64,000 nt of DNA from Blasia pusilla (GCA_050084515.1 CM114271.1:3844001-3908000), one strand, 5' to 3'; positions 176 through 12,960 are shown, numbered from the stretch's first letter. A program made the numbers and translations. The notes: generated from the letters alone by a model not told the origin.

Positions 176-1379
176 TTGTTCCAAGTCTTCATTTGGAAGG
201 ATCACCTAATTGAGGGGACCAAGTGGTTGGTGAAGATCTTTAAGCACGTCTGCCCAACACACACACAAGGACCCGAGCCAAGGAATCGCCTTAACAACCA
301 AGTAAGTACTAACCTTACAAAGAATCTTGAGATAATCCAAGTGAATGTTAGAGGCATAAGACTCAAAGGGGCGATGATCGGTGCATGGGGACAAACGAAC
401 GAGTGGGATATCATGGGGATCTTGGAAACCCTAGCCACCATATTCTCAATAAAAGGATACGAGGTAGTACAAGCACCACGTTCAAGAAGACTAGGAGAAT
501 TAGGAGTAGCAATGTCCATGCAACGTGGATTGCAAGTAAGAACGATTGAGATTGATCTGTGTTTCATCCTTGTAATGTTGAGGTTGGGGCGGCAAGAAGG
601 CAACGCATGGGTCATTGGAACAGTATATTTACAAGGGTGTCGCGCACAAGACCAAGCAAGGTAGAAAGCAACGGAACGCCTACGTCAGGAAATGGAAAAA
701 GTGTTTGCTAACTTTTCGAGTTGACATGTCATAATAGTGGATGATTTCAATAAAAAGGCCGCCATGGCTCCATCCTTGAGTTTGAATCTCCATGAGCACC
801 TACGATTTATCCCGGCGGCGGGGGACCCAAGATCAAAATACAAATGGACACAAAAAATGGCTCAACACATTGCCAATGCTGGAACCATACTTGACGTTAG
901 ATATTGTCATAGCCTTAGCGATCCCCGTCCTTCTCCCCCCACCCCCTGAAGGTGCTCCATGAGGTTGAAATAAGTCCAAATCATGGACCAATATGGGTGG
1001 AAGTCAAAGAAACGACCCACCCCCAACCTCAAGCATAATGGGCATTCAGGGTAAATGGAGACCAACTCAAGAAGGTGGATCCACTCAAGTTCCTGGCGGA
1101 TAGACAATGGAGGCAGATCATGAGCATGGAATAGATCGAATATGAGGAACTAATGCAAATAATGAGGAATATTACTAAGAGTTGGTGCCTTACGGAGAAC
1201 CTAAAGGAAATAAAGAGGGAGAGACAAGAGAAGCACCAAAGAAACCTCATACAGAAAGTGGAGCGCCTCAGGGAAAGCTCGAGATTTACAAGCGAGAGTG
1301 GGTGCACAGAGAATGACAGAGGAGAGGATCGCTGAAATTATGAGGGATCTGAAACGCACAATCCACGCCAAGAACAAGG
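176..1379 (+). mobile_element. Decayed LINE (non-LTR retrotransposon), 5' part with AP-endonuclease domain, interrupted by Gypsy element 1
   Basis: APE-like motifs IIQVNVRGI...WDIMGILET and VIIVDDFN (GDFN-like) in broken frames. The frame IHAKNK before 1380 continues as GRIQKRIQQR after 11082 once the insertion is removed. Confidence 0.75.
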
Positions 1380-2149
1380 TGTCGTGCGCATACACATCGC
1401 TACACAACATACATCGTTGTCATCAAACATACACATAAACACACACGATCCCATGCTAACTCATGTCATCCATACACATAGGCGAGAAGTACCAAAATAT
1501 CTCCAATAAAGTAAGATCCAATCTCTCTCTACATCATCTCACACTATAGCTCTCAAAGGTGTGCACTCTCTCTCATGTCAAACCAAACGCACTCTCCTAA
1601 TGAGAGGCTTGGGTTACACTCACAAGGCAAGGGACCATAGCTCCGCCGTCTCATGTCAAGAGGTTCAACAAAGAGAGAATGAGCTCTCAAGCTTTCTCTC
1701 CTTGAGGTATACCCCTCCCCTCTCCCAAGCTCTCTCCATGGTAACCTATGCTTCCAAGTCACCTCCTTGGCTCTTGACCTGATGTAGGAGGTCAAGGGCC
1801 ACTTACCAAAAATAGAAAGTCAACAATCCCCAATATGGAAACTTACCCGAAATAGTAAGTTTATCTATATGGCTCCAAATGAGCCGAAACGAAGGGGAAA
1901 CCTGCTCTCTTAGGTTTCTCAGGGCCTCAACAGGTCATTCTCAACCTCCTAGGCGTGTCCTCCACTACTCGTGAAGACGCTCTGCTAGATCCCACCGATT
2001 TATCCTAATAGTCGTGATAGTTGTCGTGCGCATACACATCGCTACACAACATACATCGTTGTCATCGAACACACACACAAACACACACGATCCCATGCTA
2101 ACTCATGGCATCCATACACAGAGGCGAGAAGTACCGAAATATCTCCAAT
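1380..2149 (-). repeat. 3' terminal block of element 1: Y2 (1380-1507), X2 (1508-2019), 2-bp spacer, Y1 (2022-2149)
   Basis: 1380-1507 and 2022-2149 are near-identical 128-bp direct repeats. 1508-2019 matches 10571-11082 (both 512 bp). Confidence 0.92.
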
Positions 2150-2335
2150 CGCCCCCCTAGCTGGTGGTTAGGTCCCTCTAACTCCAGATAGCCATCTATC
2201 CCTACCTACCACGACATACATCTCTAGGACGCTAAGAGCATAAAGGCCGGGTGCTCATGTGGCCCCATCGTTAGTCGCCTTCCTGTCATCCATGTCACAG
2301 AAAAAGTTGGAATCAAAACTTACCTAGTATCTCCT

Positions 2336-9990: not shown

Positions 9991-10570
9991 TGGCGACGGC
10001 GCTGCCAACGGCAGCTGCTGCTTTAGGATTTTGATTTTTACTCTAAAATTGGCAGTTTACAAAATTGGCCATAAAGTTTTGCTCGCAGCTCTAAATTGTG
10101 CACCATCTGTTGCACAACGTGCACAGCTTTAAGATCTAGAATGGCGTTAAAAATTTTTTGAATCGGAAAATCCTATAAAAACTGATGGGGACTGTCGTAA
10201 ACCCCAACGTCTCTTTCTTCTACCCAACATTCGGCAGTGCTTCCGAGTTGATTTCTCCCAACAAAAATGTAAAACTTGTGAAAAGAAAAATTAGAAAGCT
10301 ACATGGTGCTCCCAAGAGCACCATGTAGCTTTCTAATTCATTTGAGTGTGTGGGTAATCCGCCCACACACTCAAATTCTACCAACATTTGGGGAACGCTT
10401 CCGCGCGTCACTCTCCCGTACGAAAAAATGGTAAAGGAAAACAGCAAACTGAATGACTCTTGCTCTCGTGAGCACTCCCATGAGTCATGAAGCAGGGAAC
10501 ATGGTCCCTAACCTGCAAACACAGCGAAACTCTAGCAAGCTCCGCATTGTAGCTCTCATTCTCTCTTTGT

Positions 10571-11082
10571 AAAGTAAGATCGAATCTCTCTCTACACCAT
10601 CTCACACCATAGCTCTCAAAGGTGTGCACTCTCTCTCATGTCAAACCAAACGCACTGTCCTAATGAGAGGCTTGGGTTACACTCACAAGGCAAGGGACCA
10701 TAGCTCCGCCGCCTCATGCCAAGAGGTTCAACAAAGAGAGAATGAGCTCTCAAGCTTTCTCTCCTTGAGGTATACCCCTCCCCTCTCCCAAGCTCTCTCC
10801 ATGGTAACCTATGCTTCCAAGTCACCTCCTTGGCTCTTGACATGATGTAGGAGGTCAAGGGCCACTTACCAAAAATAGAAAGTCAACAATCCCCTATATG
10901 GAAACTTACCCGAAATAGTAAGTTTATCTATATGGCTCCAAATGAGCCGAAACGAAGGGGAAACCTGCTCTCTCAGGTTTCCCAGGGCCTCAATAGGTCA
11001 TTCTAGACCTCTTGGGCATGTCCTACACTACTTGTGAAGACGCTTTGCTAGATCCCACCGATCTATCCTAACAGTCGTGACA
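10571..11082 (-). repeat. 5' terminal repeat X1 of element 1 (not followed by Y)
   Basis: Matches 1508-2019, 55200-55711 and (inverted) 51326-51841. Confidence 0.92.
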
Positions 11083-12960
11083 AAGGGGAGAATCCAGAAA
11101 AGGATCCAACAAAGAAGTATGATCCTAAGAGAAGGAAACATGAAGAAATTATGGAGATGGACCAAAGGATTCAAGGCAGCCCTGCCGCAGGAGACAAGGA
11201 GGAAAGGTGCCCAACCGGTGATGATGCCGGAGGGAGAACTACAATTTGAAGACCACCAGATAGTCGCAAAGTGGGAGGAGGTGCTCAGGAACCAATTCAC
11301 AACTCCGCCAAGAGCAAATCATGACAAATGGAGGAGAAGGCGAGAGAATACAAAGTTCAGACCGGAAGAACTTGATGGAATTAACAAGATTATTCGCCTG
11401 AAGGAAATAAGGGAAGGACTTTGACGCCTAAATACGGGGAAAAACTCAGGACCGGATGGGTTCACTGCTGAATGGTATCGACTCATCCTCACTGATCCGC
11501 TCTGGAGCTAGAAGGAAGAGACCTGGCGGGATGAGATGAGCCTCCCGATGACACAGGTAATCCTCCGAGTCTTAAGAGAATGGTGGACAACATGGCCGCC
11601 AAAGGAAGCCAACACGGCCCGCCCTGCATGATCCCTAAGGATGCCAAACTTGGCCTGTCGGACCCAAAAATAACACGAGGAATATCGCCTATACAGTCCT
11701 ACTAAAGCTGCTCACCACGATCTTGAATGGTAGGATTATTCGGTGGCTGGAAGAAGAGGGGTTCTTCCAAAAAAACCAAGCGGGATTTTGATTGGATCGA
11801 GAATGCATGGCATAAGCACTCGCACTAAGAGAGGTCATCCTTAGATGTTAGGAGTCTAAAATGCAAACATGGATGTGCTTTATTGACTTCAAGCAAGCAT
11901 ATGACTCAATCCCACACAAAGCTCTCTTCTACAAGCTAGAGGCGACATGAATCAGAGGACGAACCCGGAGTGTGTTCGGAGAATCTATTAGAACGGAACC
12001 TTCCAAGCCCTCATTGGGTAGTTCTGAATCACCGTAATTCCAATACAAAGAGGGGTACGACAAGGTGACCCCCTCTCGCCAACCCTGTATAACATATACA
12101 TCAACCATTTGATGGAACTAGAAGAAGGAGGTGTAGTGATACCAGGAGTTATCGGAAAAAGAATGCCTGGTTTGCTCAGAACGGAGAAAAAAGAAGAACC
12201 ATTACAAGGAGCACTGGATAGGACGACCCAATGGAGAGAGTTATGGGACCAGATAGTTGGAATCACCAAATGTGCGGTGCTGACCTTCGGCAGATCTCGG
12301 GAGGAGAGGGCACTGGATAGACATATCTTTTGGCTTCAAGGACAACCAATTCTTGGGAATTAAATTCGAAGAGGAGGTGGATCGGATGTGGGCCACTCTC
12401 GTGCGGGAGAGGGCGAGGGCGGGCATAACGAAACTAAAGGAGTATAGTTTCCTATTGAAAACAAGAACATAGCAACATGGATGAAACTCCAGGTTCTAAT
12501 GACACTAGTCACACTGGTAATGGACTATGGAGCAAAAATGCTAGGATTTAAAGGATGACAGAAACTCCAGCCGATACAGGCGGTGCTCACAACCGGGCTA
12601 AAATGGATAGTAGGAAAGAGCGGACGCTCAAGAGTAGTGAGCGGCTCAATCCTATTGAGAGAATTGGGAGTGATGCCAATGGTGGCATATTGTGCAACCC
12701 AAGAGGAAAGGATAACCGTGAAGTTTGAAGTCGTGTAGTCTTGGTGGCAAGACATAGTTACTGCATCGCTGCCGCCCAAACCCCCGATAGCACCATATAG
12801 TCTGAGGTACACACGGAAACGATGGCTTAAGATGAAAAAGTTATGGGAACAAGAGCCAAAAAAAGAAAAATTCAGGTCCATCTCCGAAGAGAAATATCGA
12901 AGACAAGCTGGAGGGGCCAACCGAACAGAATATGAGAACAAAAAGTACTCAATTATGCGT
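11083..12960 (+). mobile_element. Decayed LINE, 3' part with reverse transcriptase
   Basis: KNSGPDGFTAEWY, NQAGF, FIDFKQAYDSIPHKALFYKL and RGVRQGDPLSPTLYNIYI in broken frames. The catalytic (F/Y)ADD segment appears deleted near 12175. The 3' end is approximate. Confidence 0.85.

Follow-up and report, generated by a model that had tools for sequence, protein, structure and literature searches.

The window analyzed here is a 64,000-nt stretch of the bryophyte Blasia pusilla (GCA_050084515.1 CM114271.1:3844001-3908000), and all coordinates are window-based. Its principal feature is an integrase-encoding Gypsy retrotransposon (element 1), which lies on the minus strand and reads in sense from 11082 to 1380. 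The element contains two pairs of direct repeats, X and Y. In sense orientation, the order is X1, primer-binding site (PBS), gag, protease, DNA methyltransferase (DNMT), reverse transcriptase (RT), RNase H, integrase, PHD finger, polypurine tract (PPT), Y1, the dinucleotide AC, X2, and Y2. This order was mapped by a repeat finder and self-BLAST of the window, followed by direct reading of the sequence, and the layout given in the original prediction was borne out by all three. No Y-like sequence was found after X1 by self-BLAST or sequence reading. The parts of element 1 and the other elements in the window are listed in Table 1.

Table 1. Coordinates of element 1, its parts, and the other elements in the window (TSD, target site duplication)
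Feature	Position	Strand	Remarks
Element 1, TSD, 5' side	11083..11086	-	AAGG on + strand, CCTT in sense; sequence read
X1, 512 bp	10571..11082	-	starts with TGTCACGAC; 95.9% identity to X2 over 511 bp
Parts of X1, predicted			U3, TATA-like box some 28 nt upstream of position 337, R-U5 of 176 nt
r, 16 nt within X1	10731..10746	-	perfect complement of the 16 nt after X1; predicted RNA 5' end and self-primer
p, predicted self-priming PBS	10555..10570	-	adjoins X1; covaries with r between subfamilies
Internal region	2150..10554	-	leader, gag (CCHC), protease (DSGA), C5 DNA methyltransferase, RT, RNase H, integrase (H2C2 and rve), PHD finger
DNMT3-type methyltransferase (PF00145)	5712..7078	-	between protease and RT
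PHD finger (PF00628)	2339..2480		after integrase
PPT	2150..2158	-	AGGGGGGCG in sense; adjoins Y1; conserved GGACCTAACC just upstream
Y1, 128 bp	2022..2149	-	ends with CGCACGACA at 2022; 94.7% identity to Y2 over 131 bp; repeat finder, self-BLAST, sequence read
Spacer AC, 2 bp	2020..2021	-	from Y1 end to X2 start; junction J1 (end of the element, 2 bp, start of the element)
X2	1508..2019	-	starts with TATCACGAC (TG mutated to TA); repeat finder, self-BLAST, sequence read
Y2	1380..1507	-	ends with GACA; X2/Y2 joint is junction J2; sequence read
Element 1, TSD, 3' side	1376..1379	-	AAGG on + strand, CCTT in sense
Element 2	51326..57506	+	5' X at 51326-51843, followed by PBS, not Y; similarity to element 1 ends at 57506
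Solo X-Y within element 2	55088..55711	-	TSD TTGG at 55084-55087 and 55712-55715
Element 3	23903..25819	+	non-autonomous, 1.9 kb; diverged subfamily, repeat order as in element 1; repeat finder, self-BLAST, sequence read
Parts of element 3		+	X1 23903-24269, PBS from 24270, PPT to 25228, Y1 25229-25334, spacer TT, X2 25337-25713, Y2 25714-25819
Element 4, rearranged fragment	34648..36601	+	integrase-region sequence joined directly to gag-protease-region sequence

Pfam searches and translation of element 1 gave, in order, a gag CCHC motif, an aspartic protease, a C5 cytosine methyltransferase, RT, RNase H, H2C2 and rve integrase domains, and a PHD finger, in a reading frame broken by many stops and frameshifts. 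The polyproteins of its relatives show gag CCHC, protease, DNMT, RVT_1, RT_RNaseH, Integrase_H2C2, and rve in the same order. The closest solved structures are Ty3 for the RT (E 4e-48), prototype foamy virus (PFV) integrase for the integrase (E 1e-21), and DNMT3A for the DNMT. No Pfam match to a tyrosine recombinase (Phage_integrase) was found in the 20 searched open reading frames of element 1 or in six related polyproteins. An ESM Atlas search with P0024 returned no usable match. The best named matches of the DNMT piece of element 1 come from two liverworts, Calypogeia (68%) and Marchantia (62-63%), and from a moss, Sphagnum; many metagenome proteins match as well. The Klebsormidium nitens protein KFL_009030040 (P0049), with rve, RVT_1, RNase H, and DNA_methylase domains in Pfam, is 45% identical to the DNMT piece of the window over 95% (profile E 2e-178). 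The DNMT domain is the feature that identifies the clade of element 1; neither it nor the PHD finger had been mentioned in the original prediction. A 2026 preprint names "streptophytes (Gypsy-DNMT3)" (bioRxiv 10.64898/2026.05.21.726589), and, judged from its sequence, element 1 is best placed as a bryophyte member of these streptophyte Gypsy-DNMT3 retrotransposons, with split direct repeats in the integrated copies.

The termini of the element 1 lineage are TGTC...GACA, and element 1 is flanked by a perfect 4-bp TSD. Both the TG...CA bounds and the duplication had been recognized beforehand; the span then given, 1376-11086, includes both TSD copies, and the element proper is 1380-11082. It had also been claimed that the duplication restores the frame of an interrupted long interspersed nuclear element (LINE). 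When element 1 and one TSD copy were excised in silico, a 167-codon open frame ran across the join on the + strand, and this part of the claim stands. The LINE identity is less secure, as the downstream flank gave only a weak RVT_1 match (E 9e-5) below the Pfam cut-off; a LINE with a frame restored by excision is plausible from this evidence.

The recurrence of the architecture was surveyed in a census of the 64-kb window and 80 metagenome loci, the latter retrieved when metagenome contigs were scanned once with the DNMT alignment. X and Y were mapped onto the 80 loci, and loci with identical flanks were merged as one insertion. In the window, element 3 lacks Y at its 5' end just as element 1 does, in agreement with what had been noted for both, and is flanked by CGTT/CATT, with 3/4 bases alike. 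In the metagenome contigs, split-repeat 3' ends (Y, two bases, X, Y) are present at eight independent loci (L017, L022, L030, L059, L060, L062=L063, L065, and L072), and a ninth 3' end (L002) begins likewise before its contig breaks off. Of the metagenome split-repeat elements, four are complete, with TSDs of TCTC (L059), CATA (L062/63), AAGG (L065), and AACA/AATA (L030), three of them perfect and one with a 3/4 match. Over all 12 bounded insertions of the window and metagenome, the TSD is 4 bp, perfect in eight and with 3/4 bases alike in the remaining four. For nesting by chance or a faulty assembly of the window, the only argument would be its prior plausibility in a transposon-crowded region. 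Two window elements, which belong to different subfamilies, and eight independent loci from other samples share this order, with exact junctions, so it is a lineage trait; chance or artefact is refuted and retains practically no probability. The original prediction of a distinct architecture of an integrase-encoding lineage, rather than a chance rearrangement, is upheld to this extent, and the split repeats are supported as a heritable end architecture of this Gypsy lineage. In several cases, contig pairs from different records have identical insertion flanks (L062/L063, L064/L065, L067/L068, L025/L042, L032/L043, L069/L070, and L014/L023); one host genome therefore recurs across samples.

The further claim that the architecture had never been described did not survive. 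According to the legend of Fig. 4c in de Mendoza et al. 2018 (PMC5890265), the repeats of KnitGypsy-Dnmt3 from K. nitens are structured as in a DIRS retrotransposon, and its domains are typical of Gypsy; the DIRS arrangement is drawn there as A-coding region-B-A-B. Together with the DNMT identity to P0049, this legend shows that the architecture is already catalogued for the clade to which the window element belongs, and the claim of no prior description therefore fails. Both elements have a DNMT3-type methyltransferase inside a Gypsy pol and A-coding-B-A-B repeats, and they differ in that the host is an alga in one case and a bryophyte in the other. In a literature search for the architecture or its mechanism, this paper was the only one to mention the architecture; no discussion of TSD, PBS, PPT, junction anatomy, or mechanism was found in the papers searched, including the main text of this one, and its supplements, for example the consensus sequences for Fig. 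4c, may hold more. What appears new here is the register of the PPT and self-priming PBS, both kinds of junction, the concerted evolution of Y, the 4-bp TSDs, the unit forms, and the absence of a mirror form, all of which are described below.

Split direct repeats of the order A1-internal-B1-A2-B2 are found in PAT-like, Ngaro, TOC1, and Kangaroo elements, which encode a tyrosine recombinase (PMC4157794, PMC7192593). The element 1 lineage shares this order, whereas it has an rve/H2C2 integrase, a 4-bp TSD, and TG...CA termini and shows no Phage_integrase match. Elements with the DIRS order are not known to make a TSD. Compared with Ty3/Gypsy elements (Metaviridae), the protease-RT-RNase H-integrase order, the TG...CA termini, and the short TSD are alike. 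However, there are no two equal long terminal repeats (LTRs) in element 1; the 5' end consists of X only, the 3' end of X-Y, and Y1 is internal, following the PPT.

The sequence next to X1 resembles a self-priming site. The 16 nt after X1 of element 1 are a perfect complement of X positions 337-352, and 0/200 control windows match that length. L064/L065 and L075 have a different 16-mer after X, which pairs with their own X at 164-179, and the two members of the PBS/X pair change together from one subfamily to another. At 14/25 5' ends, a complement of 9 nt or longer begins no more than 1 nt from the X end; in 13 of these 14, 0/200 control windows reach the same length, and in L062, 3/200 do. 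The partner site is located 171-179 nt before the X end in 12/14 (elsewhere in X for L007 and L062) and 25-32 nt downstream of a GGGGTATAAA-type TATA box. The complementarity and the TATA spacing together predict a PBS of the Tf1/Tcn1 style, in which the RNA primes itself. When a tRNA-type PBS was looked for by eye, no TGG-initiated site was seen after X1, and self-priming was preferred. Self-priming has been reported for Tcn1, which is found in mosses (PMC6317226). On this prediction, the PBS of element 1 would, as in Tf1, Sushi, and Tcn1, be complementary to the 5' end of its own RNA and not to a tRNA. Those elements have identical LTRs and a chromodomain, whereas element 1 has split repeats, encodes a DNMT, and carries a PHD finger behind the integrase.

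A PPT with the conserved sequence GGACCTAACC...AGGGGGGCGA adjoins Y1 in 12/12 split-repeat copies (elements 1 and 3 and 10 metagenome loci). Because the bases after X1 are complementary to a site in X, minus-strand DNA probably starts at the end of X, and because the PPT adjoins Y1, plus-strand DNA probably starts at the first base of Y. A PBS at the X end and a PPT at the Y start would therefore define Y-nn-X (nn, the two spacer bases) as the LTR made by RT, out of register with the ends used by the integrase. These landmarks bear on another origin, in which an ordinary Gypsy element with X-Y LTRs had a founder that lost the 5' Y or acquired an extra Y ahead of the 3' LTR. The solo X-Y insertion in element 2, which has its own TSD, is in keeping with such an origin, in that X-Y acts there as a unit with integrase ends. 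The PPT, however, precedes Y1 and not X2, and the PBS follows X1. Moreover, in the established model of LTR replication, the 5' LTR supplies U5 to both LTRs. A deletion of the 5' Y would strip Y from both ends of the progeny, yet the layout is stable and has been kept across three subfamilies and in K. nitens. These observations contradict a founder change, which we consider very improbable.

Both junctions of the 3' end are informative about this register. At J2, the base before the PBS is fused to the base after the PPT, exactly so in 9/10 independent copies, and J2 therefore looks like two canonical ends of complementary DNA (cDNA) joined head to tail. The remaining copy (L059, 10838-10856) has about 20 extra bases at J2, among them the final three of the PPT and a short stretch repeated from the X end; by analogy, they resemble the imprecise joints at retroviral circle junctions. 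At J1, the spacer is 2 bp in 12/12 copies (GC in six, AC in two, AT in two, TC and TT in one each). GACA-nn-TGTC with a GC or AT spacer is a 10-bp palindrome, and in L065 (10344-10359), the Y1 end, GC, and the X2 start form a perfect 16-bp palindrome. The two contigs of one shared insertion, L062 and L063, differ in this spacer (TC versus GC). As read from these bases, Y1-2 bp-X2 would correspond to the right integrase end, 2 bp, and the left integrase end, as a near-palindromic pair. The J1 palindrome and the TSDs together argue that the integrase works at the internal Y/X site.

Y1 and Y2 are 95% identical in element 1 and 94% in element 3, compared with 65% to the same-position copy of the other subfamily. 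Within one element, the divergence of X1 from X2 and of Y1 from Y2 is similar. This nearest-neighbor test is usable between subfamilies only, the copies of the metagenome family being star-like and about 90-94% alike. On this comparison, Y1 and Y2 are considered to evolve in concert, which suggests that Y2 is remade from Y1 during replication.

RNA-seq reads with the same species label cover element 1, almost all in one orientation, which is sense by the stranded-library convention. Most of them are 90-95% alike to element 1 and derive from paralogous copies. Judged from soft-clipped read ends at 2149 and 1818-1821, the transcribed copies resemble element 1 in their interior, but their Y is of the element 3 type and their X differs in its 5' part; the active subfamily thus seems to have arisen by recombination between the two subfamilies of the window. 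In Logan DNA contigs of about 100 nt, the only joints seen were repeat-mapping ones.

A different source of Y2 has to be weighed at this point. In templated repair in the style of PAT and DIRS, the RNA would run from inside X1 to inside Y2, so that J2 and most of Y2 are inherited via the RNA; the lost outer bits of X1 and Y2 would be restored from the internal Y1-nn-X2, and the integrase would insert linear DNA. The repeat order is identical to the A1-int-B1-A2-B2 of PAT, Ngaro, and TOC (legend in PMC5890265). The scheme is deterministic and would account for the absence of a mirror form. It also agrees with the RNA-seq reads on Y2 (depth 14-41 at 1430 and 1466), although these could equally stem from Y1 of other copies. 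Separate inheritance, however, would let Y1 and Y2 drift, whereas in subfamilies only 65% alike, the nearest relative of each Y1 is the Y2 of the same element. The base-exact match of J2 to the PBS and PPT boundaries is not predicted by templated repair, and the conserved self-priming site lies after X1, not Y2. An internal complementary region as in DIRS-1 was searched for, and none was found beyond the J1 palindrome. On balance, templated repair is unlikely.

Here, we propose a replication route in which the cDNA is joined and reopened. In the first step, reverse transcription would yield Y-nn-X-internal-Y-nn-X. In the second step, the two cDNA ends would be joined, either by ligation or because RT, having run to the end of the minus-strand template, jumps to the opposite end. 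In the third step, the integrase would open the internal Y/X palindrome nearest the PBS, comparable to the action of foamy-virus integrase on a 2-LTR junction. The product, X-internal-Y-nn-X-Y, would be the sole form besides the canonical linear cDNA that is able to give a complete RNA. PFV integrase, the closest solved relative of the lineage integrase, cleaves a palindromic LTR-LTR junction, that is, one made end to end, into processed linear ends (PMC1180852). The PFV junction is formed from normal LTR ends, whereas in element 1 it would be a permanent internal feature, and there is a second joint, X/Y, that marks the RT ends. PFV makes a 4-bp TSD. A Gypsy-DNMT3 element with the RT register Y-nn-X, joined cDNA ends, and an integrase that opens an internal site is the best explanation overall, and we put it at close to an even chance. 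The narrower statement that the LTR defined by RT is Y-nn-X and that the integrated copy is permuted head to tail, the integrase having opened the internal Y/X site, is made tentatively and with rather less than even confidence. The generalization that in this lineage the RT repeat is out of register with the integration ends, every competent insertion being a circular permutation of joined cDNA opened at an internal palindrome, is offered as a possibility that is less likely than not.

The 5' ends constrain how the joined cDNA would be opened. All 19 independent 5' ends (16 in the metagenome and three in the window) pass from the flank directly into X, and a mirror start, X-Y-nn-X, or Y-nn before X was seen at 0/19. 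If a host-ligated 2-LTR circle with two tandem Y-nn-X repeats were the obligatory intermediate, and the integrase linearized it at one or the other internal palindrome without preference, the evidence from J1, J2, and PFV would fit equally well (PMC1180852). Such a circle would, however, give the mirror X-Y-nn-X-int-Y as often as the observed form, and no mirror stands against 10 split-repeat 3' ends (eight in the metagenome and two in the window); we regard random opening as quite improbable. The lack of mirror forms therefore favors an asymmetric version of the proposed joining route over a free circle. In one such version, plus-strand synthesis would run to the end of the minus-strand template, switch to the opposite end, copy Y, and stop at the first internal site.

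Two other forms of insertion accompany the split-repeat form. Unit insertions have the structure X-PBS-internal-PPT-Y with 4-bp TSDs and no terminal repeat at all. Unit 3' ends, in which PPT-Y is followed by the flank, were found at 10 independent loci (L015, L020, L021, L025=L042, L032=L043, L041, L044, L051, L068, and L069=L070), and the neighboring copy L014=L023 has one further such end. The TSDs of the bounded unit copies are TACA (L020), TGTT (L068), CACA (L069), GGTA/AGTA (L044), and CTTA/CCTA (L025). Unit copies may arise by a deletion between Y1 and Y2 or by integrase cutting at both internal sites of unjoined linear cDNA, and the solo X-Y may arise by recombination between X1 and X2. 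As a unit copy is unable to give a complete RNA, the split-repeat form must be the propagating form.

Several points weigh against the proposed route. Each of its mechanistic steps is inferred from the sequences of integrated copies. A free 2-LTR circle should open at either site, and since the mirror form was never seen, an additional asymmetric step has to be assumed. RNA that runs through X2 into Y2 is possible and would allow other schemes, and the RNA depth was read in 330-nt bins, so that transcript starts, transcript ends, and reads across J2 fall below the resolution. The PBS complement is shorter than 9 nt at 11/25 5' ends, eight of which are without a perfect match of at least 7 nt; these short complements probably reflect the decay of the copies. 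The unit copies are about as frequent as the split-repeat copies. Finally, no intact polyprotein frame was present in any copy examined, including seven complete metagenome elements.

Split direct repeats have so far been treated as a hallmark of the tyrosine-recombinase retroelements, whose replication is still only modelled. The present lineage combines them with a DDE integrase, TSDs, a PPT, and a predicted self-priming PBS, and the RT register can therefore be read against the integration register, which makes the replication mechanism testable. If the permutation model is true, integrases can routinely use an internal end-to-end junction. The lineage would then provide a natural case of such use, with a bearing on the debate over the 2-LTR circle as an integration substrate. 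It would also represent a working intermediate between classical LTR elements and DIRS/PAT elements, which bears on the origin of DIRS-type architectures from LTR elements. On the practical side, programs that look for LTRs as equal pairs will annotate such elements wrongly in bryophyte and charophyte genomes. The DNMT3 and PHD finger that they carry make them relevant to studies of the epigenetic conflict between transposons and hosts.

Among the other elements in the window, the solo X-Y insertion in element 2 is confirmed by two uninterrupted paralogous sites, one in element 1 (about 7404-7407) and one in element 4. Element 4 joins a match to element 1 at 3357-3547 (integrase) to a match at 8258-6499 (gag-protease), as if a deletion had merged two tandem copies. 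Two tRNA-Met (CAT) genes (14364-14435 and 14708-14781), which we take from reading of their sequence to be of the initiator type, lie in a 344-bp tandem duplication a short way past the putative LINE remnant; they are probably not what primes element 1. Tandem arrays with 143-bp and 72-bp units are located at 18154-18585 and 18810-18953 and are unrelated to the element.

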